From a virus, in IMG/VR virus record IMGVR_UViG_3300028840_003851: a stretch of 64,000 bases of DNA, one strand, 5' to 3'. The notes under the pieces are model-generated. The model saw nothing but the letters and a program-made list of their open reading frames with translations. It ran no database searches and was not told where the DNA came from. Both the position numbers and the translations under genes were made by a program. Below, piece by piece: positions 1 through 62,312 of this stretch. Every line of letters starts with the position of its first letter. Positions within the stretch are counted from its first letter, which is position 1.

Positions 1-1527
1 CGCTAGCTTGTCTACATAAGGTCCGGATACATAGAAGTCGTTGGGACCACCAGAGCGTATCTCTATGGTGCTTGGGTCGTACACAGAGGACGTCTTCATC
101 TCTGCTTCGTCCTCTTCAGAGAGAAGCGCAGTAGCCCCTGCCTTAGCTAGAGGGAGCCACTTGAAGTGGGCTGGGACAAGCATCTTCCCGTCCTCTGTCC
201 CGACAACCGCCTGAATGTTAGGCTGCAGTGAGACGAGTATCTCCCTACCGGCGAATGTGGTTGCTGCGAACGTATCCGGCTCTCCCTGCTCTATGTCGGA
301 GAACGAGCCCTTAACCTCCATGGGTACCGTAGCTACCACCTCATCACCGACGTCAGAGAAGAAGGAACCGTACCCTGCCGGCTTGTCGGCCGTAGGAAGC
401 TCTGCCCCCTCGGCGGCTGGAACACCAGATATGCTCCCCTGCACTGCAGCTTGAGAGCCGTTGGTAAACAGAGCTAGAGGGACAGGCGTACCGTCCACAT
501 CAAGAAGGTGAGGGATTACGTAGCCTACTAGCTCGTCACCCTCTACAGTCTGAACCTTGTACAGCCCGAAGTCCGAGATGGGCGCCATACCTCCCATGTC
601 CTCGTCCCCCTGCTCCGCAACAGACTCGGCTCCATCAGCCATGGTAACGGCTCCAGACATGTCCGCCTCCATGGCCACCTTGGTGCCGTACCTCTCGATG
701 ATGTCCTTCCTGCCAACAATCTCCTCAACAGGGAGCCACGCTGCGTGTGTGGCCTCTTTTACCTTGTAGCCCCCCTCTACCCTAACAACCTGGACAACGC
801 TCGGTGAGAGGGAGCTAGCCATTACATCGGCCACCTTCTGCAGGGGAAGAGGGGTATGTCGGTAGAGCACGTTGAAGGGAGCGAACGCAGCCTCGGCATT
901 CCTTACGAATGCTGCTTGTACGTGCGGGTCGCTGGCCGCCTTCATGAACTCTTGATGGTCTGTGCTGTTAATGGTGGGAAGGATGGCCTCAAGGATAGAA
1001 GCTCTCTTCGCAGAGCCCTCCTTCGTGACAACCATGCCTCCTCCCAGATGGGCGCTGTCACGGTACGGTGGGTACAGCTGTGAGATGAGAGACTGGTCTC
1101 CAGGAGTGCTGGATGCTATGTCGAACATCTGGGGGCGGAAGATGGCTTGACGAAGTCTAGCCTCCGTAAGAGGCTGCATCTTGCTGTCCTCTGTCACTAT
1201 GAGGTCGAAGGGCAGAAGCCTACCCTCCCGGATGATGACAGGTATCCGCGCCTCCCTTACTCCCGCTGAGGCTTCCTCCTCCGGCGTAACTCCGTACTGC
1301 ATCTGGGTCTGATTAGACACGCGTACGTGGCCAAAGCCGTACCCGCGCTCCGCGTCCACCTTGTCCATCATGACGTGTGGCTCGAAGTCAGAGATGTACG
1401 GCACCTGCTTGTAGAGCTCTTGCAGAATCTCGTGGGGCCACTTGTTGGGGTCCTCAGGTAGGTCCACCTCTGCAGCTCGCTTCTCTAGAGGCTCGAAGGT
1501 CAGTGTGGGGTCTATGAATAGTTCCAT
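1..1527 (-). CDS. Hypothetical virion-associated protein (partial, >509 aa, runs off the window; absent from ORF track)
   Basis: ATG at 1527 after GGAG; I translated most of the frame without meeting a stop (MELFIDPTLTFEPLEKRAAEVDLPEDPNKWPHEILQELYKQVPY...PYVDKLA). Lies in the leftward structural operon and contains K-x-A motifs. Confidence 0.8.
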   Translation of the reverse strand, partial: MELFIDPTLTFEPLEKRAAEVDLPEDPNKWPHEILQELYKQVPYISDFEPHVMMDKVDAERGYGFGHVRVSNQTQMQYGVTPEEEASAGVREARIPVIIREGRLLPFDLIVTEDSKMQPLTEARLRQAIFRPQMFDIASSTPGDQSLISQLYPPYRDSAHLGGGMVVTKEGSAKRASILEAILPTINSTDHQEFMKAASDPHVQAAFVRNAEAAFAPFNVLYRHTPLPLQKVADVMASSLSPSVVQVVRVEGGYKVKEATHAAWLPVEEIVGRKDIIERYGTKVAMEADMSGAVTMADGAESVAEQGDEDMGGMAPISDFGLYKVQTVEGDELVGYVIPHLLDVDGTPVPLALFTNGSQAAVQGSISGVPAAEGAELPTADKPAGYGSFFSDVGDEVVATVPMEVKGSFSDIEQGEPDTFAATTFAGREILVSLQPNIQAVVGTEDGKMLVPAHFKWLPLAKAGATALLSEEDEAEMKTSSVYDPSTIEIRSGGPNDFYVSGPYVDKLA

Positions 1528-2209: not shown

Positions 2210-3448
2210 TCAGACTTGGATTGTGGGGTTACCCGTCGACACTGAGGCGCTAAAGACCGCACCAGCAGAGATGATTCCCGGTGTTGTAGCGGGGGGAGCA
2301 CCAATGATGATGGGGATGGGTGCAACCGTGGTGAACAGCACCTGAGAGCCAACGGAGGCTACCGGCTTGGAGCCTCCGTTTATCTTCGTCACACCAGAGC
2401 TGATGTCCATTGCGTCACCGCCCTCAATACGCATGGTACCGCCAGCCTTGATGGTGATGTTCTTCTTGCTCTCTATGTAGATGTCGTCCTCTGCAACAAT
2501 CTTTATCTTCCCCTTAAATCCTAGGAAGACACTAGACCTAGAGCCTAGGTACACGCCACCAGCCTTGTCTATAAAGAAACGGAGCTTCGTGCTGTCTATT
2601 GCCGTGCTATTCGGCTCTCCTCCAGCAGCGTTGAACCCTTCGGGGGACACTGTGAGCTCGTACACCACTGGGTCGTCTGTACCTATCTCCAGCTCCTCTA
2701 GGTCCTCCTGCCACCCGTCACCAGGCTCCGCCATGGCGTCGAATGTTCCGGCACATACTCTGACGCTGGCCTCGCTCTGGTTAGCGAACAGCCTGAATGT
2801 ATGCTTGTAGCTGGTAGGCAGCGTGTCGTCCGGTGCTCCTTGGCGAACACCCCAGCTGATAGAGCCACCAGTGTTGTGATGCCTGTACGTCTGCGAGATG
2901 TCCTCAACCAGGTTCTGCAGCGGTATGTACAGCCTCTGCGCCAGCTCTGTGGAGCCTATCTGGAGAACTCCTCCTCTATGCAGAACAACGAAGTTGTTAT
3001 CCCTACCCCTCATCACGATGTCACCGGGCTTACTCCGAGACCTTCCTCCTGCAAACGTGTTTGAGCTCGTTTCGTCTGCTGCCTCATCACCCTCTGCAGG
3101 GACGTCTCGGTCCACCTGCTCTATCGGCATTATGAAGCACAGAACGAAAGGGGGAGGCCCATCACTAGGGATGCACACATAGCACTTAGCCCCTACCTCC
3201 GGGCATACGTACACTCCGTCTCCTCTATTAGAGTGGAGGTACGGTGAGGCCACCTGTATATCCATGAAGTGCAGCTGGTCGTACTTAGACACCACATCTA
3301 CAGTCCACGTCGCCATGTTAAGGCCAGTTACCACGCATTCTATTATGTGCGCTCCTACTCTGCCCTCTGGCTGTGTCCATGTTGTACGGAAGGTGGAGCG
3401 ATAAAGGGGGCTCTCGCTCTCATACGTTTTTACACCCTTGAGCGGCAT
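2210..3448 (-). CDS. Baseplate central spike protein (gpV/gp5/VgrG-like)
   Basis: N-terminal OB-fold-like segment (GDGVYVCPEVGAKCYVCIP) and C-terminal beta-helix-type repeats (GKIKIVAEDDIYIESKKNITIKAGGTMRIEGGDAMDISS). Confidence 0.65.
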   Translation of the reverse strand: MPLKGVKTYESESPLYRSTFRTTWTQPEGRVGAHIIECVVTGLNMATWTVDVVSKYDQLHFMDIQVASPYLHSNRGDGVYVCPEVGAKCYVCIPSDGPPPFVLCFIMPIEQVDRDVPAEGDEAADETSSNTFAGGRSRSKPGDIVMRGRDNNFVVLHRGGVLQIGSTELAQRLYIPLQNLVEDISQTYRHHNTGGSISWGVRQGAPDDTLPTSYKHTFRLFANQSEASVRVCAGTFDAMAEPGDGWQEDLEELEIGTDDPVVYELTVSPEGFNAAGGEPNSTAIDSTKLRFFIDKAGGVYLGSRSSVFLGFKGKIKIVAEDDIYIESKKNITIKAGGTMRIEGGDAMDISSGVTKINGGSKPVASVGSQVLFTTVAPIPIIIGAPPATTPGIISAGAVFSASVSTGNPTIQV

Positions 3449-6400
3449 TAGTACGCGTGCTCCGGTACGTCTAGAAGTCTAGTAAGACCTGGGGTTCTCT
3501 TGGCATGCTCCTTCGTCACACCAAACTCAGCTCCGTATGCGATGCCAGGAACAGGGTGTACACCGTGTATGTGCGACACAGCTCCTGTAGCCGCCGAGTC
3601 CATGATGGTGCTTCTAAGCCTCTCGTGCTGCAGCTTAGCCATCCAGTCCTGCTGAGCTTGGAGTGGGGCGAAGTCCACCCCCTTCAGTATAGGTGAATGC
3701 ACTGTCGGCTTCTTGCCCGCCTTCACGAGCTTCATGTTCTGCTCTCTTATCACAGACGCAGGCATTATCTCTCCCTTCAGAAGATACGGAGCATCCCCTG
3801 GGTCACGTATCTTCGTCGTGTTCGTCATCCCCTTAACTACCGTCTCCACGTGCTGCCTTCTTACTCCTTCCTCAGCGTAAATCTTGTGCAGCTCGTCTAC
3901 AAGGTGGTTCTGCACCTTCTCGAAGTTGTTGGTAGCCTTGTAGAGGTCCTTAGGATTGACCACTGTTCTTGAGGGGTCAGACAAGGATGTTCCGGCCTCT
4001 ATCTTGTCCCCAACCTTAGGCGGCCTCCAAGGAGAGTCATCGTCTACTGAGAACAAAGAGCGTCCCTTCTTATCCTTGCCCACATGGTGGGCTTTACCCC
4101 CGACCCACACCTTGGTACCGGTCTTGTCCCTCTGTATCTTCTCAACCCTGCCCGATGTCATGGCTAAGGTGGCTGAGTTCGCTATCTTGTCCGGCATAGA
4201 GGTCAGCTGCTGAACTCTCGCAAACTGGTCTGCAACCGACGCCTTGGGCGTCCACACCCCTCCACTGTGGAACGCCTTCATAGGGAGCTGCACTGAGCGC
4301 TCTCCGAGAGACTGTGCGGCGAGGATACCCACGTTGGTACCTACGGGGTACCGGTTACCATCTGCGCCCAGCCCTGCGCACTTCTGGCAGAGCCCTTGTC
4401 CGTGCGTACATTTAAGGGCGCTGCGAACTACAAGCTGGGCATTCTTGTCTGCTCTACGCATCTTTCCCAAGATGTCCGGTGTCAGCACCGTCCCAGCAGG
4501 GACCTCGAGACCTTTGGCCTTGAACGACCTTGCAAGGGTCCTGTCGTACGCCCCCTCGTCACCGACAGACATCGATACACCCCGGTCCGTCTTGCAGTCA
4601 TCGCCAGTTACAACAAGGTTCACGGTGTTCTGCACCAGCTTCTTGGAGAAGTAGCCTGGCTCCGACACCTCTTGAACCTTTCGTACAGAGCCCCTGCGTG
4701 CACCAGTGGCAGCCGTCCAATACCCTCCAAAGTCCATGCCCTCCGCGTAGGACTTGTCGACCGGTACCGGAACTGGCGAGCCAGTAGAGTCGACCATCAT
4801 CACAGGAGCTAAGGCCAGCTGCTTGTACTGGTCCCACCCCGGCTTGTTGCCTGACGATAGCATGGTTGCCAGATTGTTCTTTGGGAGCTTGGACCTGTGC
4901 TCCTTGTCCATCTCTGCACTAGCCTTAGCCCATACAAGGGGTATCTGGCGCTCCTTCTCCGCCTCGGACATCTTACTGGCGCGTATCAAGTCTACTCTCT
5001 TCTTTGCCATCCCTAGATGCTTGTCTCTGGTAGCTTTGTCCGGCTCTAGGTCCTCAAGCCCTAAGGAGTGTGCCCCCATCGGGATGTACATCTTGGTCTT
5101 GTCTGGTCGCTCCGCGTCCTCTATTGCCTGTCTACCCTTCTGTGCTGGGTTAGGAACAGACACAAGCCCGTTAGCAGCTTCAAACCCAAACTTCATCAGC
5201 TTGTGCGCCGAGTCTCCGAAGTCACCCTTGTGGTTCTTCGCTAGCTCCGAGTAGAGCTTAGTGATTCCCTTCTTGTCTAACGTGGGAAGAGACTCTATGG
5301 CCTTCTCCTGCATACCATCTGGAAGGGCAGACGCTACAAGCATCCTTCCTGGAGTGGTCTTCTTGCCTCCTACCGTCGCCAGCTCCGTCATACCCAGCTC
5401 CCCTCGTTGAGCAGCTTGCAGCGCCTCTGTCGGGCTCTTGTAGCTCTTACGACTGACCTTATCTACCTTGGTCATCTTGTAGAGACCCATAGCGCTGTCT
5501 AGACTAGGCTGGTACGTGACCTTTCCTGACGCCTCGGCGTACAGGTTCTTTGACGGGAGCATGCCCTTCGCCTCCTCAACAGCCTCCCTTCCTACGGGGA
5601 CGTAGGCGCTCATTGTATCCCCGTCAAAATCGGCATTGAAGCCGCCCGTCACCAACGGGTGAATCTTTATCGCCTTACCTCCTACAAGCTTTGTTTTGAA
5701 CGCCTGTACGGAGTGCTTGTGCAGCACGGGGTCTCTCTTCAGGATTACAGGACGTTCATCAGCGACAAGCTCTATCGCCCTGAGCACTGATGGGTTCTTA
5801 GTAGCCTTCTTATCGGCGAGCATAGACCTCGCCTCTAGTGGGTTTCTAGCTGCACCCGTCTCTACTAGCTTTCTGGCAACGAACGGTCGCATCAGCTTAA
5901 GCGCGTAGTCCTTAGGCATCCCCACCTCATCTACCCCGAGAGAGGGCTCAGGGACGATGACAGAGCGCATAGAGAGGTCTTGCCTTCGGTTCATTAGGGT
6001 CTTCTGGAAGAACCCCTCCTTAGGGGAGCTACCATGAATCTGCTGCAAGATTCCTTTGTACTTATCGTCCTCTCCAAATGTACCGACACCCATCACAGCC
6101 TTGACGCCATCATATAGACTCTTTCTAGCCTTTCGCTTGGCCGTGTTCTTGTCGAGAATCTCCTTCATAGAGTCCTTCTTGAGAGAGTCGTTACCCTGCG
6201 CTAGAAGCTGGTACAGCCCGTTAATGTCCTCCCACTTAATGGAGCCATCCTTCATTACAGATGCTGGACGCATCTGCGGCGGGATTACAGGAAGGTTCTC
6301 TAGAACATACGCCTCCGACGGTTTAGCGCCAATCTGCTTAAGTGCACGCAGGTACTTTATCTTTTTGACGGTAGAGTCCATCTCCTGCGTTGGCGCTCCG

Positions 6401-9400
6401 TGAGCCATGCCTTTAGGGACGGGCATCTCTTTAAGCTTCTTCTGCTGCGTCGCTAGCTCCTTGTTTACGTCTATCTTGTCTAGAAGGCGCTTTATCCCCG
6501 GTCCCCCCGTTAGAGCTCCAGGAGTGTCTAGAGCCACTATGTTTCCCTTCTCGTCTACCGCCTGGTCACCGCCAACAATACCTGTGTAATCCTTCTCTTT
6601 CAGGCCGGTTAGCTTCTGAATCGCAGTCTCGAAGACAGGGTTGGGTACGGGCTCTGCTAGCTTGATGTGGTTCCACCTCTTACCGCCGTGACCGCCTGTT
6701 ATCTTGGGGTCGAAGAGACCCCCTCTCTTAGGGACGGGCTCTCCGTTCTTATCTAGCTTTGTGTAGACAAGCTCAGCGGGCTTAGGAATTGCCCCGCTGG
6801 ACATGTCCTTTATCTGCTTATTCGTAAGCGGCAGAAGCTGTATGTTGTGGCCCTTCTTCTCTACATTGACGCCGGCCGCCTTCAACATCGATGTGAACTT
6901 GTTGAAGGAGAACGTTGGGCGGGGGGTAGGTAGAGGGGTTCCAGACTGTATCGCAGACCACACCTCTCTGTGCTGGCCTGCCCAGCCAAAGGGTCTGGGG
7001 TCGTCTCCCTCGCTCTTGATGGTCTGCATCTCCCTGATATTTGCCTTGGCCCCGTGCGCCAACAGGGAGTAGATGCCCAGTGGGCTCATGCGCTGCCCGC
7101 CAGTCTTCTTCCCACCTATAGGTAGAAGGTTGTTGTCGTAGCTCTCTGGCTCGTTGTCGCCTTTTAAGGGCATGCCTGAGCGTACCGCTGTCTTCTTGTC
7201 TATCTGATGGGTCAGCTTTAGCATGTGCTGGGGGCCCACGAGAACCTTCCCCAGACTCTGCTTGGTGACGGGGTCTATGAGCTCCTCCTTGTCCTCGATG
7301 CCATGCTCCTTGAGAGCCTTCTTGACCATCGCAAGGTTGTCGGCACCGGGTGCGAAGTTCTCCACAATGAATGGCTTGCCAGTCTTCTCTGCTACCTTCC
7401 CTGCGGCCGTCTCTAGTATCTGAGACGGGTTCATTCTGCCGGGAACTCCTGCGGGGTTGAGGGCTACATCGATGGGCTTACCATCCCTCGTATGTGGCAT
7501 CTCCTTATCTGGGAGGACACAGTTACCAGACCACACTGGGATGCCCAAACGACGCACGTAGATGATGTGGTTAGGAACGTCGACGCAGTAGACCCTCCCC
7601 TTGTACTCTTCCCAGCGCTCGTTACAGTACCTCTTATCGTTGTTCGTCCACACCTCGTCTTTCAAGGACCACCGAACGACAAGCTCTCCAGGCTTAGGCT
7701 CCTTAATGTTTGCAGAGAACCCTAGCTTCAAAGCTAGCTCCTGATAGTCATCAGCTAGCCTAGGGGAGGAGGTAAACAGCTCATAGCGAGTGTGGTTGTC
7801 CTTCGCTCTATAGTAAACACCACCGTCCCCCATAAACAGCGCATCAGCCAAAATCCTAAGCTGTCTCTGCGAGAGTACGAGGAGCTCACGAGGTATGAAC
7901 TTATCCTTAGCCTTACCGAACTGCTTTAGCCATGCGTGAAGCTGGGGGTCGGAGAAGGTAATCCTAGTAGCCTCTTTATAGGTACTGTACCCGAGTCGCT
8001 CAATCACGGAGCATATTCGCTCATATTCCTCTGGGTGTACGCTGCGAGTCTGCGCGATGTGTATGTGGGAGCTACCTCCAATACACCCCTCTGTAAGCCA
8101 AAGCCCGAAGAGCTCCAAAAACAGGTCTGTGTCGTACTTCCTAGGGGCAGAGAGCTTCTTGTGCCTCTTGGGGGCGTCTGGTCTACCAGGGATAGTAATC
8201 TCCTCGAGCTCCTCCCCCTCCCATACCCCAGTGCGAAGGTGTAACCGAGGCATCCCAAAACACTCCTTCGCAGGCTGTAGGGAATAGCTGCCCCTACGAG
8301 TACGAACGTAATGACGATGCTCTGGTGTCACCAGTAGGTTGAGTCTACGACCGCTATACGAGTACATCTTCCCGTCATGTTGCTGGTCAACGTACCCAGT
8401 AGGAGCTTGGTACTCAATCTTCCTGGTCGCCGGGTTGAGCGTACAAATCAGCTCCGTCCGGTCTAGGTCCTTGAAGAACCTCCAGCCCTTATCGGTTAAC
8501 ACCTCGGAATCATTAGAGAAACATGTTACAATCCCTTTGTTTCCATGACGCCCAGTCAGCTTATCCCCCGCTTTCATAGGCTCCACGGTCTTTACGTGGA
8601 CCGTTACCTCCTTGCCCTTCTTGTGTACCCCTACCACCTCCCCAGGGTGGTCAGACTCCCAGCGCAGAGAGATGTCTGTGTGCTGTCCGGACAGGCTCTT
8701 GCCTATGGAGCCCAGGTCCATCCTGTCCTTCATCTTGTACGGACGCATGGCTAGGACCAGAGGGTCTCCCGGCCTTACTGTCTGCCCTACCTTCACGACC
8801 CCCTTCTCGTCTAGCTTACCGTGCTGCTCCTTACCGAATGCCTCAGGGTGCTGGTTCCTGAACTTCTTGGGATCTGTGACAACCTGGTCCTCAAGGGCTA
8901 TAGGGAGCTTCTGCATGTGCACTGAGGACAGCTTCTTTGCCGCGCTCTCACTAACTACAACGCCATCCTCGAAGTTGTACCCCTTGTAGGGTAGATAGGC
9001 CGCTCTAAGATTTGTACCTAAGGCCAGCTTACCGTCTTTGGTAAAGTTCGTGTCCGCTACAGACTGCCTTCTCTTCACACTGTCCCCCACCTTTACCAGG
9101 GGGGTGGAGGTGATGACGGCTTTAGGGTCGTTCAACGGGAAGTTGTTGTACAGCTGTACCTCGTGCTTCTTCCCAGACTTATCCTTAACGACGATGGCGT
9201 CGCCCTTAACGCTTACTACCTCTCCGTCGACGGGAGACATGTGCCCTGACGCTTTACCTAGTAGCTCCTCGAACGTCTGTAACCCCTCCTTCTTAGAGCC
9301 CGTACCTACCTGTACTAAGGGGGCCTCTCTATGCTCTAAGGAGATAGACTGCTCTATGTGCTGCCCAGCGTATGTAGCTCTGTTCCCGGAGCAGCTGCCG

Positions 9401-10878
9401 ATGAAGGGAACTAGATTCGTCGTAGTGTTTAGAGCCTGAGACGCGTGCCGCTGTATGTAGTCTACGTTGTCTAGACTCCCGGTTGTTAGCTTGTTCCCCT
9501 TTCCGGCAATCTTTATCTCCTTGCCTACAGGCTTGGGCTTACCCTTATCCCACGTAACCTGGTCTGCCAGTGCTACGTTGGCGTTTACAAACTTGCTTGG
9601 CGGGACATCCTCCATTTTACCCGTCTTAACGTTGTACATCGGTACAACGGGCTCATTACCCTTCTTGCGGACCCCCATAGGGAGCCGTAGCGTGATACCC
9701 GTCTTCTCCCCCTCAGGAGTGCGTAGCGGGTCTAGGTACCCAAGGTGCGATGGGTTTATAGCCTTGGCATCCTCGGTCACGCGCTGTACAGACTGTATAC
9801 CGCCAGGTCCCAGCGGAGTTGTCTGAGAGGCGGAGGAGATAATCTCTACAGGGTTAATCTGGTCCGCCATTCGCGCCATTGAGGTACGGAACACCTGGCG
9901 TACAGGCTCGTTAAAGGAATCAAAGTTTACTATCTTCCGAATATCCGCCTTCGGATTGTCTATCTGCCTTTTACCCCTGGTCTCTACAATCTTCTTTGTC
10001 TTCCAGTGAGTGAGCTTGTCGTACGCAAAGTCCTCTACGGAGCGAAGGTTCTTGTACTCTAAGCTATCTCTATCATCCTCAGGAGCACCGGAGTGAACAT
10101 CAAGTATTCTCTTCGTCGCCTTGCGAAGAACGTCTCCCGTTATGTGGTCAGACTCTACACCCAGGGTAGACTTGGCCACCTCAGGCTGCATCTTAGTCGC
10201 TGTCATAGCCTCCTTGAAGTAGGCAGCAGCCTCCTTCTTAGATGGTGCGGCAGACTTCTTATCAGCCTTGTAGAACGCCTCCAGCGCTCCCTCAACTGCT
10301 CTGGCGCTCTTGTTCGCCTCTAACATCTCCTTGCCCCAGCTTTTTTGGAGCTGCTCGTCTGTAACCCCCATCTCCCTCATCAAGGGGTACAGCGGTATGT
10401 TGGACTTCTTTCTACGAAGAGACAGCTGCTTGCTGGCCGGGTCTAGCTCTATCTTAAAGTCTCTACCATCAGGAGCGTTAAAGGCCGTGTGCACCTTACC
10501 CTTAACATCACGCCTCGTGTACGCCCCTGGCTTCAGCTGCCACTGGCTGTCTACCTGGTACTCTTTACCGTCTATGATGTGGCTGAAACGACTGGTTACA
10601 GTCGGTATAGACGCTATCCGGACTCTCTCTTTAGACGTCTCCCCTGTCTCCTTGTTCTCTAGCCTCAACGTAGCATACACAGGAGTAGCAAAGGTCTTAC
10701 CTTTTATCTTGTGGTCGTGCTGCTTCCTGATGTCGTCGGGGTCTGTCCCTATATCTGCCTCTAGCTTCTCAAGGTGGAGCTCACGCTTCTTTCCCTTGAT
10801 AGGGAAGTGCTCACCGATACCCTCAAGAACCTTAGCCTTCAGCGCCTCGTTTGCCTCTTTGTGACTAGCGTACGGCAT
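3448..10878 (-). CDS. Single-chain DNA-directed RNA polymerase, fused beta + beta' (RpoB-RpoC-like), intein-containing
   Basis: Beta motifs: SQWQLKPG, GPGG, HLGYLDPLRTPEGEKTG, GDKLTGRHGNKG, LNPAGVPGRMN. Beta' motifs: GGLFDP, RQDLSMRSVIVPEP, KRDPVLHK, FNADFDGD (5617-5637), PGYFSKKL, C-x6-C-x2-C, AAQSLGE. All lie in one 2476-aa frame. Confidence 0.95.
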   Translation of the reverse strand: MPYASHKEANEALKAKVLEGIGEHFPIKGKKRELHLEKLEADIGTDPDDIRKQHDHKIKGKTFATPVYATLRLENKETGETSKERVRIASIPTVTSRFSHIIDGKEYQVDSQWQLKPGAYTRRDVKGKVHTAFNAPDGRDFKIELDPASKQLSLRRKKSNIPLYPLMREMGVTDEQLQKSWGKEMLEANKSARAVEGALEAFYKADKKSAAPSKKEAAAYFKEAMTATKMQPEVAKSTLGVESDHITGDVLRKATKRILDVHSGAPEDDRDSLEYKNLRSVEDFAYDKLTHWKTKKIVETRGKRQIDNPKADIRKIVNFDSFNEPVRQVFRTSMARMADQINPVEIISSASQTTPLGPGGIQSVQRVTEDAKAINPSHLGYLDPLRTPEGEKTGITLRLPMGVRKKGNEPVVPMYNVKTGKMEDVPPSKFVNANVALADQVTWDKGKPKPVGKEIKIAGKGNKLTTGSLDNVDYIQRHASQALNTTTNLVPFIGSCSGNRATYAGQHIEQSISLEHREAPLVQVGTGSKKEGLQTFEELLGKASGHMSPVDGEVVSVKGDAIVVKDKSGKKHEVQLYNNFPLNDPKAVITSTPLVKVGDSVKRRQSVADTNFTKDGKLALGTNLRAAYLPYKGYNFEDGVVVSESAAKKLSSVHMQKLPIALEDQVVTDPKKFRNQHPEAFGKEQHGKLDEKGVVKVGQTVRPGDPLVLAMRPYKMKDRMDLGSIGKSLSGQHTDISLRWESDHPGEVVGVHKKGKEVTVHVKTVEPMKAGDKLTGRHGNKGIVTCFSNDSEVLTDKGWRFFKDLDRTELICTLNPATRKIEYQAPTGYVDQQHDGKMYSYSGRRLNLLVTPEHRHYVRTRRGSYSLQPAKECFGMPRLHLRTGVWEGEELEEITIPGRPDAPKRHKKLSAPRKYDTDLFLELFGLWLTEGCIGGSSHIHIAQTRSVHPEEYERICSVIERLGYSTYKEATRITFSDPQLHAWLKQFGKAKDKFIPRELLVLSQRQLRILADALFMGDGGVYYRAKDNHTRYELFTSSPRLADDYQELALKLGFSANIKEPKPGELVVRWSLKDEVWTNNDKRYCNERWEEYKGRVYCVDVPNHIIYVRRLGIPVWSGNCVLPDKEMPHTRDGKPIDVALNPAGVPGRMNPSQILETAAGKVAEKTGKPFIVENFAPGADNLAMVKKALKEHGIEDKEELIDPVTKQSLGKVLVGPQHMLKLTHQIDKKTAVRSGMPLKGDNEPESYDNNLLPIGGKKTGGQRMSPLGIYSLLAHGAKANIREMQTIKSEGDDPRPFGWAGQHREVWSAIQSGTPLPTPRPTFSFNKFTSMLKAAGVNVEKKGHNIQLLPLTNKQIKDMSSGAIPKPAELVYTKLDKNGEPVPKRGGLFDPKITGGHGGKRWNHIKLAEPVPNPVFETAIQKLTGLKEKDYTGIVGGDQAVDEKGNIVALDTPGALTGGPGIKRLLDKIDVNKELATQQKKLKEMPVPKGMAHGAPTQEMDSTVKKIKYLRALKQIGAKPSEAYVLENLPVIPPQMRPASVMKDGSIKWEDINGLYQLLAQGNDSLKKDSMKEILDKNTAKRKARKSLYDGVKAVMGVGTFGEDDKYKGILQQIHGSSPKEGFFQKTLMNRRQDLSMRSVIVPEPSLGVDEVGMPKDYALKLMRPFVARKLVETGAARNPLEARSMLADKKATKNPSVLRAIELVADERPVILKRDPVLHKHSVQAFKTKLVGGKAIKIHPLVTGGFNADFDGDTMSAYVPVGREAVEEAKGMLPSKNLYAEASGKVTYQPSLDSAMGLYKMTKVDKVSRKSYKSPTEALQAAQRGELGMTELATVGGKKTTPGRMLVASALPDGMQEKAIESLPTLDKKGITKLYSELAKNHKGDFGDSAHKLMKFGFEAANGLVSVPNPAQKGRQAIEDAERPDKTKMYIPMGAHSLGLEDLEPDKATRDKHLGMAKKRVDLIRASKMSEAEKERQIPLVWAKASAEMDKEHRSKLPKNNLATMLSSGNKPGWDQYKQLALAPVMMVDSTGSPVPVPVDKSYAEGMDFGGYWTAATGARRGSVRKVQEVSEPGYFSKKLVQNTVNLVVTGDDCKTDRGVSMSVGDEGAYDRTLARSFKAKGLEVPAGTVLTPDILGKMRRADKNAQLVVRSALKCTHGQGLCQKCAGLGADGNRYPVGTNVGILAAQSLGERSVQLPMKAFHSGGVWTPKASVADQFARVQQLTSMPDKIANSATLAMTSGRVEKIQRDKTGTKVWVGGKAHHVGKDKKGRSLFSVDDDSPWRPPKVGDKIEAGTSLSDPSRTVVNPKDLYKATNNFEKVQNHLVDELHKIYAEEGVRRQHVETVVKGMTNTTKIRDPGDAPYLLKGEIMPASVIREQNMKLVKAGKKPTVHSPILKGVDFAPLQAQQDWMAKLQHERLRSTIMDSAATGAVSHIHGVHPVPGIAYGAEFGVTKEHAKRTPGLTRLLDVPEHAY
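7522..8523 (-). mobile_element. Intein (334 aa) with LAGLIDADG-type homing endonuclease, in the RNAP beta moiety
   Basis: Begins CFSNDSEVLTDKGW and ends VYCVDVPNHIIYVRRLGIPVWSGN, followed by Cys+1. Internal FGLWLTEGC and ADALFMGDG motifs. Removal restores GRHGNKGIVT|CVLPDKEMP. Confidence 0.92.
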
Positions 10879-10953
10879 GACCTATAGATTCTACCTCATC
10901 AATGACAGTAGTGCAGCGTTACCAGCACGTGCAAGCTTCTCCTGATTTCTAGC

Positions 10954-10962
10954 ATAAGAGTA
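10954..10962 (+). promoter_or_regulatory. ATAAGARTA motif, putative phage early promoter/start element
   Basis: ATAAGAGTA followed by GTG at the start of the rightward block; the same motif recurs at six other gene heads. Confidence 0.6.
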
Positions 10963-11145
10963 GTGAAGAGGACATCAACCTTAACAAAGGAGATGACGAT
11001 GTCTTTCCCCGATGATGAGGGGCTTTTAAGCCCCGACCAGCAAGAGCAAGAGCAAGATGACTCCTACCCCGAGTCCGACGAGGACTCGGGTGCAGCGTGG
11101 TCGGCGATATCCAGCGCCGACTACCTGTACGAGGAGGAGGACTGA
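10963..11145 (+). CDS. Small highly acidic protein
   Basis: D/E-rich ORF of 50-60 aa (possible starts 10963, 10990 or 10996). Confidence 0.55.
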   Translation: MKRTSTLTKEMTMSFPDDEGLLSPDQQEQEQDDSYPESDEDSGAAWSAISSADYLYEEED

Positions 11146-11273
11146 TGTCCGCGCTCTTCTGGTCCTCCTTCGTTGTTGGGTTCCTATCTGGTCTAGGTTT
11201 CTGGGCTAGAGACGAGCTCGACAAGAGGGAGCGTAAGGATGGTAAGGATGCTTCGGCATCCCTCCAGCCTTAA
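11145..11273 (+). CDS. Small membrane peptide (42 aa; not in ORF track)
   Basis: TGATG overlap with the upstream ORF; MSALFWSSFVVGFLSGLGFWARDELDKR has one hydrophobic helix. Confidence 0.5.
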   Translation: MSALFWSSFVVGFLSGLGFWARDELDKRERKDGKDASASLQP

Positions 11274-11898
11274 CGGGGCTAGAAGGGTTGCGGACGAGTG
11301 GGGGGTTACCGGTACTGTGCTTTGGCACCCCGGTAGCCCCCCACGTTCTTGGACTGTCCACAGCCTTTTTAGACCTGTAAACAGCGTAGGTCTGCGCGCA
11401 CGACTGGTAGATGACAAAGGTTTCATTACCTTCATAAATCAGATGGAGCTAGAGATGCTTCTCGGTACCGCATCTCAGGGCTCGTGGTGCTCGTGGGCAG
11501 GTAGACCCTACCCGGCCCCCGGTGGGCCTGAGTGGGAGGGTCTTTTAGCTACGGAGGGAGACCTTCTTGATGACCTGTACGACAGAGAGCAGTACATCAG
11601 GTACATGTTCCCCGACAAGATACCAGGAGGTGCTGAGATAAGAAGACGTGTGTACACAGGTGGGCGAAATGTAGAGCAACTTCTTGTCCTTTTATGGGAT
11701 AAGGACCCTGAGACAGGCATAGAGCCTGACAGTAGATACGAGACGTTAAGCCGCCGATGGGCAGCCGTTGAAGAGGAGGTACAAGAATGGACATGCTTGC
11801 CCTTAACAGACAGATTGGGGTGGGTTCCCTCGCTGTCAGTGGCCACAGATGCAGCTACTGCAACAGGGACATTCCCCTATCCGTACCGGGGGATGTAG
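11239..11898 (+). CDS. Hypothetical protein
   Basis: 219-aa ORF in the operon direction; start uncertain. Confidence 0.55.
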   Translation: MVRMLRHPSSLNGARRVADEWGVTGTVLWHPGSPPRSWTVHSLFRPVNSVGLRARLVDDKGFITFINQMELEMLLGTASQGSWCSWAGRPYPAPGGPEWEGLLATEGDLLDDLYDREQYIRYMFPDKIPGGAEIRRRVYTGGRNVEQLLVLLWDKDPETGIEPDSRYETLSRRWAAVEEEVQEWTCLPLTDRLGWVPSLSVATDAATATGTFPYPYRGM

Positions 11899-12395
11899 AG
11901 GATATCGTTCTTATGCAGGTTGTTTCGGGGGTGAGGGACGGTAGAAACGTCATCACTCGGATAGAGACCGCAGATGACGGCGACTACCTGTTCGCCCCCC
12001 ACTTCTTCTGCATGATGTGCTGGGAGGAGATGACAGACGCACTTACAGACGCGAGCAAGTCACACAGACTGCATAGAACCATCTACCACAGCGAGCATCT
12101 GGTTAGGTGCTTTGAGTGTAACTCCGCTGTGCTGGATGGAGAGATTTTCGCGACGGTGTGCTCCGGCGCACTACAACCATCCCCAAGAACACCATTTGGT
12201 GTACCGGAGGTAGATTTCAAAGGAACGGATAGGCTAGAGAGACCTGTAGTTCTGTGCATCGGCTGCATGAAGCTCTTAGACAGCTGTGTCAAAGAGCTGT
12301 GGAACGCTGATGTGTCTCAAGGCGATGAATGTGATGAGGGTACGTACAAACGGTGCTGGCGTCAGCTGAAGTGCACCGACTGCATTGTGAGGTAG
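11787..12395 (+). CDS. Cys-rich multi-CxxC putative zinc-binding protein
   Basis: SD AGGAGG; CSYC, CMMC, CFEC, CIGC and CTDC motifs. Confidence 0.65.
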   Translation: MDMLALNRQIGVGSLAVSGHRCSYCNRDIPLSVPGDVEDIVLMQVVSGVRDGRNVITRIETADDGDYLFAPHFFCMMCWEEMTDALTDASKSHRLHRTIYHSEHLVRCFECNSAVLDGEIFATVCSGALQPSPRTPFGVPEVDFKGTDRLERPVVLCIGCMKLLDSCVKELWNADVSQGDECDEGTYKRCWRQLKCTDCIVR

Positions 12396-12397
12396 AT

Positions 12398-13648
12398 ATG
12401 AGAGAAAAGAAGGTAAAGGTAACATCGGACTTCTTCACGAAGATTCCGTATGAACGGTTCGAGGAGGTTCTGTACATCCTCCTCCAAACCCCTAGGGACC
12501 TAAACCCCTGGGATAAGGGTTGTAGGATGGGCATCCCCGCCATCTTCTGGGGGATGTCGGGTATCGGCAAGTCGGAGCGAATCGAGGCTGTGGTGGGGGG
12601 CTCTATGGGGATGACGCAGGAGCGCCTGCTCCCTGTGTCGTACCCTCCGGAGAACTTCGTAGGCGTCCCCGTGATTGTGGGAGACACCGTTAGGAGCGAG
12701 GTCCTCATAGGCCAGATTCGGCGCCTCATCCGAGGTGGCGTTAACGACGCTGTGCTCGTCATAGACGAGGCCAGCGACGCAGATAGGCTCACGCAGGGCG
12801 CCATGCAACCACTCATCCTGGACAGGGTGGCCGGGGATGACAAGCTACCCCCAGGGGTACGAGTTGTGCTGCTGGCCAATCCTCCTGAGTACTCAGCGGG
12901 GGGCTACGAGCTGGTGGCCGCCCTGGCCAATCGCATGGGGCACTTCATGGTGCCTGTGGAGGAATCGATGCTCGACTCGTTCTGCGAGCACATCATGGAC
13001 CCAACCCCGCCCAAGCTAATCCCGTTCAAGAACGGGATAGAGGCCATCAAGGACGGGTGGCAGGCAGCATGGTCTGGGGCGTCCGCGGAGATGGTATCCT
13101 TCCACCAGACCATGAGGAGCATCGAGCTCCTACACAACCAGCCTAAGGCTGGTAGCACAGAGGGAGGAGGGGCTTGGCCCTCGCCCCGGACGTGGAAGAC
13201 CGCCTTCCAGTGCATCGCTGCCCTTCGGTGCTTGGACATGGACCGAGGGCTCGAGCCCTACTTCCTTAGAGCGTTCATCGGGGAAGCAACCGCACGCCAG
13301 TACGAGAAGTGGAGCGTGTACCGCGACCTACCCACACCAAAGGACATCCTTACCAGGAAGGCGGGGTGGGACCTCACAGAGGACACCCGCCCAGACAAGG
13401 TGTCCATGATGTGCCGTGCTGTGGCGTCCTATGTGGTGGCAGCAGATAAGCAAGGTTGCGACAAGCTAGCTGCTGTTGCCTTTGAGTGGATTGGCCTGCT
13501 CTGCGACCTCCACTTCAGAGACGTTGTGGTGCCGCACTGCAATTGGCTCTCCCGTAAGGGAGTGGGGAGGAAGAGCAAGAGTGAGGAGGTTCGTAGAGCC
13601 GCCAAGGCGGTCGTACGAAAGCTAGGAGCTGACGGGGTGGTGGGATGA
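12398..13648 (+). CDS. MoxR-like AAA+ ATPase
   Basis: Walker A GMSGIGKS, Walker B LVIDEAS, sensor LLANPP, arginine finger ALANRM, PSPRTW. Confidence 0.88.
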   Translation: MREKKVKVTSDFFTKIPYERFEEVLYILLQTPRDLNPWDKGCRMGIPAIFWGMSGIGKSERIEAVVGGSMGMTQERLLPVSYPPENFVGVPVIVGDTVRSEVLIGQIRRLIRGGVNDAVLVIDEASDADRLTQGAMQPLILDRVAGDDKLPPGVRVVLLANPPEYSAGGYELVAALANRMGHFMVPVEESMLDSFCEHIMDPTPPKLIPFKNGIEAIKDGWQAAWSGASAEMVSFHQTMRSIELLHNQPKAGSTEGGGAWPSPRTWKTAFQCIAALRCLDMDRGLEPYFLRAFIGEATARQYEKWSVYRDLPTPKDILTRKAGWDLTEDTRPDKVSMMCRAVASYVVAADKQGCDKLAAVAFEWIGLLCDLHFRDVVVPHCNWLSRKGVGRKSKSEEVRRAAKAVVRKLGADGVVG

Positions 13649-16058: not shown

Positions 16059-16095
16059 CCCCCTAAATTATCTCTATAAAACGGGGATAAGAGTA
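16053..16095 (+). promoter_or_regulatory. Bipartite putative phage promoter
   Basis: TTTTAGCCCCCTAAA, then ATAAGAGTA 31 nt after the TAG, followed by TTG ATG. Confidence 0.65.
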
Positions 16096-17009: not shown

Positions 17010-18980
17010 CTAAATTGCGGGGGTCTCCCTACGTGGCGGTAGGACCTCTGGGTTGGGCCTCATATCTACTCCTGCAGGGGCTCCTTGAGGCGCACCCCCC
17101 TCCGCGCCTCCCATCTGAGAGAGCATCTGCTCTACCATCTGTGCGAGCTCAGGGGACTGTGCCGCAATGGTTTGCAATGCTGTCTGCTGCTGGTCAGGCG
17201 GCATCTGAGAGAGCTGCTGGGCCAGCTGCTGAGCCATGGCAACTATATCGACCCCTGTACCCTCGGGAGACTGCTCAGGCCCCATACGCTGCCCCATATC
17301 CAGAGGACTGCTCATCGCCATCTCAGCTCCAGGCGGAGCGCCCCCTACCTGCTGTCCTCCGGCAGTGCCCCCTCCAGCCTCAGGACCCCCAGGCTCACCT
17401 GGTGCTTGAGGCGCCGCCTGAGCCTCCATGGCAGCCTGCTGAGCCTTGACCTGCGCCTTGGACATGATGAGCTGGCTCTCTGCCTGTACCTCGGCCATGG
17501 CTAGCTGCTGCTTGCGGGTTGACTCTAGCCGCTTCTCCGTCTCCTGCACCATGAGCTCGTCCTCCTCCTGCTGACTTAGGTCAGAGTCCGACAGTAAGGT
17601 TGTGTCTGAGAGCTTCTGGGCCTGATTGTACTGGAATAGCAGGGCTTTCCTCTGCAGGTCGTCGGCCATCTTGAATGGCTTGAATCTAGCCTTCACCAAT
17701 GGCCAACGCATGTAGTTGCTGACCTCCCGGATTACCCAGCGAAGGAACTGCGTGTGCCGTGTAAGGTACCCAATGAAGGTGTTCTCCATGATGCGCAAGC
17801 TCACGTTAGAGCCGGAGTACGACAGCCCACCAAAGATGAGCTCCTTCGGTACTCCCATACCCCCTAGTATCTGCTCTGAGTGAATCTGCATCTCCTGCGT
17901 CATCAGAAGAGCTCTGCCATCCCCGCCAAGAGTCTGCTGACCTATAGGTAGAGGTAGGATGGGAATGTAGTTGGGGTCCATTCTCCATCTTGCTATCTCA
18001 GTCGCTATGTGGTCCTTCCACTTGCTGAGATTGATTGTCGTGTAGGGGTCACTTGTACCTGAGCCAGCCTGCGGGAACAGCACACGCAGAGGTACTATGT
18101 GCTCTAGCAGAATTGCCTCCTGCGCCTTCTTCATCACCTGAAGGTAGAACGTGTCCTTCAGCACAGGCATGAGCAGAGGCATGCCCCATCCTCTATCCCT
18201 TCCTCCCAGGGACGGGCGCTTAAAGAAGAAGAAGTTCTCCGAGAACTTGATTCCCTTGTTCTTCTGCAGAGCCTGCATGAACCGCTGAGGTGTCGTCTCT
18301 ACAACGTCCTTCTTACCGATGGAGATGTCGCTCTTAACGCTCTGAGGGATGGTGTAGTAGTACGTAGACTCCCCTGTAAGCTCGTTGTAACGAACATCCA
18401 GGTCCTCTATGTTCCAGCGCATAAGCTTTATGCCGGATGCGTCCCTGTAGTAGAAGTCGTGGGCATCCGCTTCCTCTGTACTACCGCACCTAGGGCACGA
18501 CAGAAGGAACTGAAAGTTGCGCATCCTGTAGTGCTCTCTAATCTTGTCTGCCCGCTCAGTGAACCCACAGGTCTTACAGACAAGGTACTTCTTGAATGGG
18601 TACGAGATGCTAACTGCGCACGCACCAAACGTGTGATAGTCAAGTCCGCACTCGACCTGGAATGGGCGTATGCGTAGATGGTCCTGTAGGTACTCCGTCC
18701 ATCTGCTAACCACCTCAGGTCTGTCATGGTCTATCACTATGTCAGTGATAGGGTACTCAGACAGCTTGAACACCGTGGCGTTGATTAGAGGGTTGGTGAA
18801 GAAGTAGTACCTACACCACCGAAACATCCTCTTTATAGAGGCCGGTAGCCAGGTGTGTGCGATATCAAAGAACGGGGACGGGTACGTAAGACCTCCGTCC
18901 TGTATACCTCCAGATATCCTCCCTCTAGTGCGTGCGTACCTATAGCTAGGTCCGCACGTCATGGCTCCTGTTACGCTCAT
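17010..18980 (-). CDS. Putative portal protein with zinc-ribbon insert and Q/G/P-rich tail
   Basis: Size, position in the head module and portal-like segments (RYYFFTNPLINATVFKLSEYPITDI; GMGVPKELIFGGLSYSGSNVSLR); CKTCG and CPRCG insert. Confidence 0.55.
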   Translation of the reverse strand: MSVTGAMTCGPSYRYARTRGRISGGIQDGGLTYPSPFFDIAHTWLPASIKRMFRWCRYYFFTNPLINATVFKLSEYPITDIVIDHDRPEVVSRWTEYLQDHLRIRPFQVECGLDYHTFGACAVSISYPFKKYLVCKTCGFTERADKIREHYRMRNFQFLLSCPRCGSTEEADAHDFYYRDASGIKLMRWNIEDLDVRYNELTGESTYYYTIPQSVKSDISIGKKDVVETTPQRFMQALQKNKGIKFSENFFFFKRPSLGGRDRGWGMPLLMPVLKDTFYLQVMKKAQEAILLEHIVPLRVLFPQAGSGTSDPYTTINLSKWKDHIATEIARWRMDPNYIPILPLPIGQQTLGGDGRALLMTQEMQIHSEQILGGMGVPKELIFGGLSYSGSNVSLRIMENTFIGYLTRHTQFLRWVIREVSNYMRWPLVKARFKPFKMADDLQRKALLFQYNQAQKLSDTTLLSDSDLSQQEEDELMVQETEKRLESTRKQQLAMAEVQAESQLIMSKAQVKAQQAAMEAQAAPQAPGEPGGPEAGGGTAGGQQVGGAPPGAEMAMSSPLDMGQRMGPEQSPEGTGVDIVAMAQQLAQQLSQMPPDQQQTALQTIAAQSPELAQMVEQMLSQMGGAEGGAPQGAPAGVDMRPNPEVLPPRRETPAI

Positions 18981-30031: not shown

Positions 30032-30047
30032 CCCGTAAACAGGAGAC

Positions 30048-30078
30048 GGGGGAGGGTGAGAGCCCTCCCCCTTTTTTT
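30048..30078 (+). terminator. Strong Rho-independent terminator abutting the polymerase ATG
   Basis: GGGGGAGGG-TGAGAG-CCCTCCCCC-TTTTTTT, then ATG at 30079. Confidence 0.8.
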
Positions 30079-47327: not shown

Positions 47328-47338
47328 GACCTGTCATC

Positions 47339-56928: not shown

Positions 56929-56969
56929 AGCACCTCTACTCTAGCAGCTGACTGCTTTCTAAGGGAACG

Positions 56970-59555: not shown

Positions 59556-59632
59556 GCCTCATCGTACCACCATCCGTATGCACCGAGCACCTCTGTCAGA
59601 GCGAGATGTGAAAGTTCGTCATGAAATAAAGC

Positions 59633-62280: not shown

Positions 62281-62312
62281 CAGGGTTCTCTCTGCGGTGC
62301 TACACTGTATGC

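Follow-up and report, generated by a model that had tools for sequence, protein, structure and literature searches.

A single-chain beta-beta' RNA polymerase core, with a putative phage sigma factor, predicted from the genome of an uncultured marine phage

The window analyzed here, a stretch of 64,000 nucleotides (IMG/VR record IMGVR_UViG_3300028840_003851), comes from an uncultured marine phage with a genome of approximately 178 kb, and carries on its minus strand a gene for a multisubunit-type RNA polymerase (RNAP). The features of the locus are as follows.

2210..3448, minus strand: central tail-spike gene (gpV / gp5-OB / VgrG-like), the ATG of which overlaps the RNAP stop (TAATG)
3448..10878, minus strand: fused beta-intein-beta' RNAP gene, a single open frame of 2476 aa without a stop
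3451..6849, minus strand: beta' module (aa 1344-2476), bridge helix and trigger loop present
5617..5637, minus strand: catalytic loop NADFDGD (aa 1748-1754)
6091..6228, minus strand: beta' clamp helices (approximately aa 1551-1596), predicted docking site of the phage sigma
6841..6858, minus strand: beta/beta' junction (aa 1343/1344), without a linker, modeled by AF2 as a confident beta-hairpin (pLDDT 85-94)
6850..7521, minus strand: beta module, C-extein (aa 1120-1343), C-terminus ...FNKFTSMLKAAGVNVEKKG
7522..8523, minus strand: class-1 intein with LAGLIDADG homing endonuclease (aa 786-1119, 334 aa), from splice motifs and LAGLIDADG_3
8524..10878, minus strand: beta module, N-extein (aa 1-785), with fork loop PLGPGGIQ, NPSHLGYLDPLRTPEG, GYNFEDG and GRHGNKGIVT
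10888..10895, minus strand: GGTAGAAT, candidate -10-like element (motif G[CG]TAnnnT), 9 nt before the RNAP ATG
10951..10959, minus strand: TCTTATGCT (plus strand: AGCATAAGA), clade-conserved element in the divergent gap, candidate phage promoter in either orientation
17010..18980, minus strand: portal gene, homologue of Arash gp204, upstream of the RNAP gene on the same strand

Consistent with the first-pass annotation, the gene is phage-encoded, the window also carrying genes for a helicase, DnaB, primase, DNA polymerase A, UvsX, the portal homologue and the spike, and its beta motifs run into beta' motifs within one frame; removal of the intein from the 2476-aa precursor would leave a compact product of 2142 aa (about 2140 had been given), with approximately 1009 aa of beta and 1133 aa of beta'. 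The Pfam domains follow the order Rpb2_3 (337-399), Rpb2_6 (550-788, with a second stretch past the intein), LAGLIDADG_3 (1013-1063), Rpb1_1 (1344-1574), Rpb1_2 (1631-1773) and Rpb1_5 (2047-2363), and the junction motif, FTSMLKAAGVNVEKKG, begins at aa 1328 of the precursor. All of the beta motifs (fork loop GPGG, GYNFEDG and the GRHGNKG lysines) are present in order, the intact Mg loop NADFDGD, bridge helix, trigger loop and clamp helices of beta' are likewise all present, and the catalytic motifs are invariant in an alignment of 20 homologues. The four-Cys zinc ribbon of the beta' N-terminus is absent, with no Cys in aa 1344-1420 and none invariant there among the 20 homologues; the second Zn site of beta' (Cys2095/2157/2164/2167) is invariant. 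In the beta alignment, the rifampicin-pocket segment reads SSASQTTPL versus THKRRLSAL in bacteria, S, Q and T occupying the H, R and S positions, and the enzyme is probably rifampicin-insensitive. An AF2 model of aa 1120-1860, which includes the junction hairpin, has a pLDDT of 80.8 and bacterial beta' subunits as its best Foldseek matches. Judged by its sequence, the gene encodes the whole catalytic core of a bacterial-type two-barrel RNAP in one chain.

The intein sits inside the GRHGNKG motif of beta, and its residues include Cys1 (C786), a block B TPEH, a C-terminal GN (N1119) and a +1 Cys (C1120); its LAGLIDADG_3 match scores 34 bits. The penultimate His is absent, Gly1118 standing in its place, but inteins that lack this residue can still splice. 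The exact intein segment is missing from 15 of the 20 aligned homologues, which read GNKGIVT-[K/M/Q/R/L/A]-. From these motifs we infer that the intein would first splice out of the active-site motif to give the mature core.

The fusion is real and under selection. No stop or assembly join, a concern raised with the first-pass annotation, occurs at the junction: two Logan assemblies, one of sediment (2018) and one of seawater (2021), which may be the source samples themselves, span window positions 3000-11500 on single contigs, free of joints and with 0 differences. That the gene could be an assembly chimera, a pseudogene or a misbinned cellular gene is suggested by the metagenomic origin of the sequence and by several relatives filed within bacterial or archaeal MAGs. 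However, besides the two identical assemblies, the exact protein was found on six contigs, the uninterrupted junction recurs in hundreds of independent homologues along with the invariant catalytic residues, and the surrounding genes are those of a phage; furthermore, the relatives in MAGs appear to be misbinned, since their contigs are phage-like fragments labeled with unrelated phyla. We consider an artifact of this kind hardly credible. Conversely, the rarity that the first-pass annotation implied did not hold. The fused layout occurs in at least 120 database clusters (2117-2984 aa) and at 78 IMG/VR loci, 111 of the 150 nearest 50%-cluster representatives are fused (i.e., at least 1950 aa), and by these sequence counts the fused form dominates a very large metagenomic family.

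The profile searches and phylogeny suggested with the annotation agree with its description of the enzyme as recognizably bacterial-like. Matches in the PDB are strongest to bacterial beta' (E 5e-100; Thermus beta' 454-1461) and, for beta, to the cyanobacterial subunit (E 5e-58 over aa 57-784) and that of Thermus (7e-52), with weaker ones to the AR9 nvRNAP (8e-11) and archaeal subunits (1e-8). The bacterial equivalog cut-offs are not reached (NCBIfam PRK00405/TIGR02013 and TIGR02386: 263/896, 218/801 and 462/963.5 bits), identity of the family to any enzyme from bacteria is approximately 27%, and a branch of 1.65 (aLRT 100) parts it from bacteria in a tree built from the family and 16 diverse bacteria alone. 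By sequence, then, the RNAP is homologous to RpoB/RpoC but an orthologue of no bacterial lineage. The cellular fusions of Helicobacter (PRK09603) and Wolbachia (PRK14844) likewise join the beta C-terminus to the beta' N-terminus in one polypeptide, but they comprise 2800-2900 aa, are ordinary members of their lineages and work with alpha2 and omega. The phage fusion appears to be independent of these, since it scores only 123+296 and 127+258 bits on the two models, whose cut-offs lie at 5372 and 4632. The MAGs also yielded two cellular rpoBC fusions (L182 and L229).

Among cultured phages, Arash (Gp206 and Gp216; OQ632216; PMC10585845) and the Vibrio phages D69, D148 and D181 encode RNAPs of the same family, colinear over query aa 3-2453 at 30-34% identity (approximately 32% for Arash). 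In these phages, beta is fused without a linker to the N-terminal half of beta', which is split approximately 80-100 aa past NADFDGD with the C-terminal piece 0.6-4.7 kb off, whereas the window enzyme is fully fused; the intein also sets it apart. The Arash annotation uses plain beta and beta' names and leaves the fusion unremarked (PMC10585845). As in the window phage, the portal gene adjoins the RNAP gene and the same sigma family (Gp10) is encoded, and there is one RNAP, without alpha or omega, per myovirus genome of approximately 180 kb. Split forms are nested among fused forms in the tree of the family, which widens the question, raised for mReC, of how old phage multisubunit RNAPs are. 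One relative (P0186) is truly two-gene, with a beta of 1524 aa followed, nine genes on, by a beta' of 1036 aa, sizes that resemble some mReC entries. The mReC phages are metagenomic tailed phages of 100-300 kb with bacterial-like, deep-branching beta/beta' found by COG0085/0086 (Weinheimer and Aylward 2020, PMC7481178). By this description, the window family, likewise separated from bacteria by a long branch, is probably a member; in the accessible part of the table the mReC phages have separate beta and beta' proteins, and the text mentions fusion only for crAssphage (PMC7481178). We found no description of the fused single-chain layout in the accessible portions of that study (PMC7481178) or of reviews of phage RNAPs.

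The enzymes of phiKZ and AR9 are also phage-encoded two-barrel RNAPs without alpha and omega, but each of their beta and beta' subunits is divided among two to three polypeptides, there are two sets per genome and no sigma homologue, and they are far more divergent; the window phage has one chain, one set and, in addition, a sigma. Both barrels lie on one polypeptide in YonO and crAss-like gp66 (PMC7481178) and in the P23-45 TMP-RNAP, and some such enzymes are virion-delivered (PMC10770324). In contrast to the window protein, which keeps nearly the whole bacterial beta/beta' architecture, these three lack most bacterial accessory domains and are too divergent for COG/Pfam beta/beta' models (PMC7481178).

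The first-pass annotation suggested an alpha-independent single-subunit enzyme, having seen no alpha, omega or sigma gene in the window; indeed, none of these Pfam families was detected in the window's 68 remaining ORFs. The alpha and omega families (PF01193, PF01000, PF01192) were likewise not detected in four CheckV-complete relatives (G001-G004) or Arash (positive controls 14/14), scans that covered the window and these five genomes. The absence of alpha and omega genes thus gained support, but a factor-free enzyme did not: a sigma70-family protein of 298 aa is encoded in the phage's own genome 28.4 kb outside the window (L256:3040-3936). Its Sigma70_r3 match (32.6 bits) exceeds the Pfam cut-off, it aligns with the Arash gp10 family (hhalign probability 99.3, E 8e-21), and the family profile matches regions 2-4 of SigA/RpoD (E 7e-16); region 4 of the protein is a generic HTH only (residues 264-290), and the protein alone has no PDB match. 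The gp10 family, comprising 379 metagenomic proteins, is present in five of five other genomes tested, including every complete relative among them, and the lengths of five contigs that carry the sigma gene (188971, 187857, 196519, 188773 and 200070) coincide with those of fused-RNAP contigs. Prediction of a core-sigma complex scored 0.78 versus 0.00 for the best control, a mark that 58 of 80 solved complexes attain, as do 2 of 110 mismatched pairs, although beta' clamp and sigma are a textbook pair, so that the score may reflect likeness to solved holoenzymes, and the prediction does not discriminate the phage core from the host core. At least 43% of contacts are shared between runs, the partner has a pLDDT of at least 64, and the interface joins clamp-helix aa 1554-1587 to sigma residues 36-81. 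The prediction thus puts the phage sigma on the beta' clamp helices, where region 2 of bacterial sigma factors binds. We infer that promoter recognition is not built into the fused core, which would pair with the phage sigma and probably still needs it.

To our knowledge, every cellular RNAP needs an alpha-like platform to join its two large subunits; here, the covalent join may stand in for assembly on alpha2 (and omega). The absence of an alpha gene would also be compatible with use of host alpha, the fusion being a mere convenience as in Helicobacter and Wolbachia. Cellular beta-beta' fusions keep alpha, two such genes turned up among the MAGs, and the likeness of the phage enzyme to bacterial ones extends over almost all of beta and beta'. 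Yet its low identity to bacteria, its long branch and its poor scores on the cellular-fusion models argue against this unlikely alternative, and it seems difficult for a family so divergent, with members from many habitats, to preserve an interface to the alpha of each host. Furthermore, alpha is dispensable for the enzymes of phiKZ and AR9, phages that each package one of their two RNAPs in the virion (PMC7598289). Quite improbable, in our judgment, is a fused chain that recognizes promoters and initiates without sigma or any other factor; the window lacks sigma, alpha and omega genes, and single-chain enzymes such as YonO, gp66 and the TMP-RNAP exist, but a sigma70-family protein is conserved in this genome and all tested relatives, the clamp helices are kept and predicted to bind it, and in Arash the sigma accompanies the polymerase in virions (PMC10585845). 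Alternatively, the phage sigma might act on the host polymerase and redirect it, as happens in T4-like and jumbo phages without an RNAP.

When the enzyme acts is a related question. The RNAP gene lies in the morphogenesis block, putatively translationally coupled to the spike gene it overlaps, with a terminase gene downstream, and the synteny portal ... RNAP-spike ... terminase is kept in relatives; the enzyme would therefore be made late. By mass spectrometry of Arash virions, Gp206 (beta + beta'-N) ranks top in spectra (3516), ahead of the major capsid protein; Gp216 was found as well, and so was the sigma Gp10, with 100% coverage (PMC10585845). As an analogue, Arash has a split beta' and approximately 32% identity to the window RNAP. 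We lean towards a single-chain core that has no alpha, operates with the phage sigma and is made late; enzyme and sigma would probably enter the virion together and be injected for transcription of early phage genes, with later transcription probably left to newly made enzyme. In that case, the phage would have little or no need of the rifampicin-sensitive polymerase of its host. A rather unlikely alternative, which we nonetheless take seriously, is a non-virion polymerase, with host RNAP, perhaps sigma-redirected, transcribing early genes and the fused enzyme serving only middle or late ones, as do T7 RNAP and the phiKZ nvRNAP. There is one RNAP locus per genome in the four complete relatives and Arash, and so the dedicated virion and non-virion enzymes of phiKZ have no counterpart; the window has a host-like -10 element, G[CG]TAnnnT, before the RNAP gene, as do 9 of 29 relatives within the last 30 nt, where 0.6 would be expected; and the Arash authors allow that proteins abundant during infection could be carried over into virion preparations (PMC10585845). 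However, the position within the portal-spike-terminase block fits late synthesis better than early, and the Arash spectra and sigma coverage also point to packaging. More tentatively, this clade may possess the smallest complete sigma-dependent cellular-type machine known, a 240-kDa chain and a 250-300-aa sigma without alpha or omega, both carried in the virion and injected, making a phage of approximately 180 kb independent of host RNAP from the first minute. Fusion would in that case be an evolutionary answer to assembling a multisubunit RNAP after tail passage.

While phiKZ and AR9 showed that the alpha platform can be lost, the fused family is a different, simpler solution, very common in nature, that keeps almost the whole bacterial architecture and, apparently, the use of sigma. 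Should core and sigma prove active together, the pair would make a bacterial-type transcription system of only two proteins, open to recombinant expression. It would lend itself to structural studies of sigma-dependent initiation, free of assembly problems, and could also become an orthogonal transcription module, probably rifampicin-insensitive. The cultured relatives Arash (Salmonella) and D69 (Vibrio) make the fused-RNAP reading directly testable. As for promoters, GGTAGAAT and TCTTATGCT are candidate motifs; G[CG]TAnnnT also precedes three other large minus-strand genes of the window, and the TCTTATGCT/AGCATAAGA element stands 40 nt upstream of a small plus-strand gene.

The polymerase gene forms an uninterrupted frame of 2476 codons on the minus strand of the window (3448–10878), in which the Pfam domains Rpb2_3, Rpb2_6, LAGLIDADG_3, Rpb1_1, Rpb1_2 and Rpb1_5 follow one another in this order. 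Since the alignment with 20 homologues extends to the very first residue, we consider the annotated start correct. The precursor comprises the following parts:

aa 1–785 and 1120–1343, minus strand: beta module, aligned over nearly its full length to cyanobacterial and Thermus beta
aa 786–1119 (nt 7522–8523), minus strand: intein, with Cys as first residue, TPEH (block B) and two LAGLIDADG-like helices
aa 1344–2476, minus strand: beta' module, aligned to residues 454–1461 of Thermus beta' (E = 5e-100)

The fork loop, GYNFEDG, GRHGNKG, NADFDGD (aa 1748), bridge helix and trigger loop are all present, and most are invariant across the family; the first-pass annotation was therefore right that beta motifs run without a stop into beta' motifs and that NADFDGD is intact. 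Its description of the enzyme as bacterial-like also holds, as the beta module matches cyanobacterial beta (E = 5e-58) and Thermus beta (E = 7e-52) in the PDB, whereas weaker scores were obtained for the AR9 non-virion polymerase (8e-11) and for archaeal subunits (about 1e-8). The second zinc site is present (Cys2095/2157/2164/2167), while the N-terminal four-Cys zinc ribbon of beta' is missing, there being no cysteine within aa 1344–1420. When aligned to bacterial beta, the rifampicin-pocket segment reads SSASQTTPL, as opposed to THKRRLSAL in the bacterial chain.

The intein ends in Gly-Asn and is followed by Cys. As precisely this segment is absent from 15 of the 20 aligned homologues, in which GNKGIVT continues with K, M, Q, R, L or A, its excision restores the family consensus and yields a product of 2142 aa, in agreement with the roughly 2140 aa anticipated after splicing. 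P0002, an orthologue at 75% identity, is free of inteins. Other family members carry inteins at two more points adjoining the GRHGNKG motif, and one is interrupted by an intein after the trigger-loop FH. Mobile insertions are thus frequent in this gene, given that 69 of the 150 nearest cluster representatives exceed 2250 aa. Some members reach 3300–4700 aa (P0008, and the representatives P0191 and P0147 with 4739 and 3719 aa), probably owing to several inteins or insertions.

At the junction, the beta C-terminus consists of the helix FNKFTSMLKAAG and the strand VNVEKKG, immediately followed by the beta' start HNIQLLPL. In an AlphaFold2 model of aa 1120–1860, built from a 40-row alignment (mean pLDDT 80.8), the junction falls in a beta-hairpin within a block of pLDDT 85–94, and for this reason is predicted not to be a flexible tether. 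Foldseek searches with this model returned bacterial beta' chains as top matches (E about 1e-32) and nothing beyond the sequence searches.

Neither a stop nor an assembly join, either of which would speak against a genuine fusion, was seen at the junction: two Logan assemblies (sediment 2018, seawater 2021) cover window positions 3000–11500 as single contigs, with no differences and no joint. However, as both runs may be source samples, we give more weight to the family. The best 120 database clusters all measure 2117–2984 aa, at 46–75% identity and on contigs of up to 200 kb, and 111 of the 150 nearest representatives, from a library clustered at 50% identity, have at least 1950 aa. While a single-protein query of IMG/VR returned no loci, an alignment-based scan identified 78 that match residues 1–2476. 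The fused layout is, accordingly, common in nature rather than exceptional. Phage contigs encoding it also occur inside metagenome-assembled genomes (MAGs) labelled Deltaproteobacteria, Leptolyngbyaceae, Aenigmatarchaeota and others (L171–L176), probably through mis-binning; we rejected these mutually contradictory labels as host evidence.

The nearest cultured relatives in the phage collection, at 30–34% identity, are the Vibrio phages D181, D148 and D69 and Salmonella phage Arash. Unlike the window, these phages encode beta together with the N-terminal half of beta' in one gene of about 1525 aa, and the remainder in a second. A true two-gene form also exists within the family, in which nine small genes separate beta (1524 aa) from beta' (1036 aa). 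A maximum-likelihood tree built on the beta' part (unrooted, with a small outgroup and one long branch, D69) separates the phage family from 16 bacteria of very different phyla by a branch of length 1.65 (SH-aLRT 100); D69 and the three stand-alone beta' proteins are dispersed among the fused forms. This topology suggests an old fusion in the family, with the splits arising later. Bacterial enzymes share just 26–29% identity with the window polymerase, whose scores fall far below the NCBIfam equivalog cut-offs set for rpoB, for rpoC and for the two cellular fused types. Two MAGs, one of Pseudomonadota (L182, 2772 aa) and one of Ca. Ratteibacteria (L229, 2530 aa), contain cellular rpoB-rpoC as one open frame, and may represent further natural cellular fusions outside Helicobacter and Wolbachia.

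Full-text literature searches found no description of the fused layout in phages; a moraphage paper (PMC12619734) and a review on the alpha subunit (PMC13374769) have no bearing on it. Reviews of jumbo-phage polymerases from 2020, 2021 and 2026 cover split enzymes only; in the table of the paper on mReC, metagenomic tailed phages with a deep-branching multisubunit polymerase, the phage rows examined list beta and beta' separately (PMC7481178); and the Arash paper does not remark on the fusion of beta to the N-terminal part of beta' (PMC10585845). As phage polymerases of the multisubunit type are already known, we regard the single-chain layout as a new form within that type, and not as a new type.

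None of the remaining 68 ORFs in the window showed a sigma, alpha or omega domain, as the first-pass annotation had stated. Furthermore, RNA_pol_L, RNA_pol_A_bac and Rpb6 had no match in Arash and four CheckV-complete relatives (99–100% complete; 14 of 14 controls positive), each of which has only one polymerase locus. As Arash and D69 carry a small gene immediately upstream of the polymerase, a 91-aa ORF at that place in the window (10949–11224) was considered as an omega-like subunit; it was rejected because its translation is of low complexity and eight close relatives have no conserved same-strand ORF there.

A sigma factor is, conversely, conserved. Homologues of Arash Gp10, which is annotated as RpoS and was seen in virions at 100% coverage (PMC10585845), occur in D69 as well as in each of the four complete relatives (E = 2e-16 to 3e-56). 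In metagenomes the family numbers 379 proteins of roughly 250 aa, several of them on contigs identical in length to contigs with the fused polymerase, and the family profile matches regions 2–4 of SigA/RpoD structures (E = 7e-16). Although the window's own contig was not among the results when metagenomes were scanned with the sigma alignment, a walk along the same Logan contig located the gene on a further stretch of this genome (L256):

L256:3040–3936, 28.4 kb past the window end: phage sigma factor, 298 aa

Residues 19–294 of this protein align to the family profile (hhalign 99.3%, E = 8e-21), and it scores above the Pfam Sigma70_r3 cut-off. It has an insertion of about 60 aa, missing from the ~250-aa relatives, between region 3 and the C-terminal HTH. 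An ECF-like 192-aa sigma (in the relative G001) and a 368-aa Sigma70_r2 protein (Arash) were dismissed as partners for the clade, as they are lineage-specific extras that are not conserved. The predicted complex of the 298-aa sigma with the N-terminal part of beta' scored 0.78 against 0.00 for the best control, a mark that 58 of 80 solved complexes attained, as did 2 of 110 mismatched pairs, although this pass may be owed to likeness to solved holoenzymes and does not tell the phage core from the host core. Runs agreed in at least 43% of contacts, with a partner pLDDT of at least 64. In the model, clamp-helix residues 1554–1587 contact sigma residues 36–81, the textbook interface between sigma region 2 and the clamp helices.

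We infer from these sequence comparisons an alpha-free, omega-free, single-chain core of bacterial type, active after protein splicing, that most likely works with the phage sigma as a two-protein holoenzyme. The earlier proposal of an alpha-independent single-subunit enzyme is thus supported in part, the complete relatives lacking alpha and omega genes; a factor-free enzyme, however, is unlikely given the conserved phage sigma. Of the rpoA and sigma homologues for which a scan of the rest of the genome had been proposed, sigma was found; no alpha was detected in the complete relatives or Arash. Recruitment of host alpha by the fused core would also be compatible with phage genomes devoid of alpha genes, but we consider it improbable.

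The stop codon of the polymerase and the start codon of the gene that follows overlap (TAATG); the product of the latter resembles gpV/gp5-OB/VgrG central spikes, and two further morphogenesis genes are nearby:

17010–18980, minus strand (that of the polymerase): homologue of the Arash portal, upstream
about 5.7 kb downstream of the polymerase gene: GpA-type terminase

The order portal, divergent ATPase/VWA block, polymerase, spike is kept in relatives at 45–57% polymerase identity. Mass spectrometry of Arash virions yielded more spectra for the fused subunit than for any other protein, and also detected the beta' C-terminal piece and sigma; the authors considered both packaging and carry-over possible (PMC10585845). 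Packaging and injection are the best-supported role, at a probability we put near one half, given the gene's position among virion genes, its coupling to the spike gene and the proteome of Arash. A purely intracellular middle or late polymerase, with which carry-over into virions would be consistent, is the main rival and appears distinctly less probable.

The gap that separates the polymerase gene from the divergent genes contains two motifs conserved far more often than expected by chance, which we treat as leads only. C[TA][GC]TTAT[GC]C occurs 40–135 nt upstream of the polymerase ATG in 10 of 29 distinct relatives (0.09 expected). The exact 12-mer TAYTCTTATGCT was found, among 170 loci, in the window's own contig only, and the degenerate core alone is conserved; TCTTATGCT occurs exactly three times in the window, with similar flanks each time. 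Read on the other strand, the motif is G[GC]ATAAGAG, which lies 4–40 nt upstream of plus-strand gene starts, before small genes and often preceded by a short A-rich run:

10951–10959, plus strand: G[GC]ATAAGAG
16085–16093, plus strand: G[GC]ATAAGAG
35045–35053, plus strand: G[GC]ATAAGAG
59630–59638, plus strand: G[GC]ATAAGAG
61872–61880, plus strand: G[GC]ATAAGAG

This core recurs at the corresponding position in no fewer than 10 related phages and is a candidate phage-specific promoter; because it also precedes plus-strand genes, it may act on either strand. The second motif, G[CG]TAnnnT, lies 8–17 nt (25 nt in one relative) before the polymerase ATG in 9 of 29 relatives (0.6 expected), and 5–9 nt before five start codons in the window (five cases at −13 to −17, about 0.7 expected):

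10888–10895: before the polymerase gene
region 47335–47342: before the 525-aa gene
region 56938–56945: before the 628-aa gene
region 59561–59568: before the 861-aa gene
62299–62306: before the 95-aa gene

If it is a −10 element, its position suggests leaderless or near-leaderless mRNAs.

Several other genes of the window were noted. Between the portal and polymerase genes, and divergent from them, 12353–15009 (plus strand) encodes an AAA ATPase (phrog_1297) followed by a DUF2201_N/DUF2201 (VWA-like metallopeptidase) protein, a pair found at the same place in relatives. In the 861-aa protein (56970–59555, minus strand), an SNF2-type helicase (ResIII, SNF2-rel_dom, Helicase_C) shares the chain with an inorganic pyrophosphatase (InPase) domain. 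At 28868–31758 (plus strand), a family A DNA polymerase is apparently split over two genes, one for the 3'-5' exonuclease (387 aa) and one for the polymerase (559 aa). The window also encodes ThyX, a UDG-superfamily protein and NT5C, as well as an adjacent pair of tRNA-Leu genes with anticodons CAA and TAG (63701–63851, minus strand).
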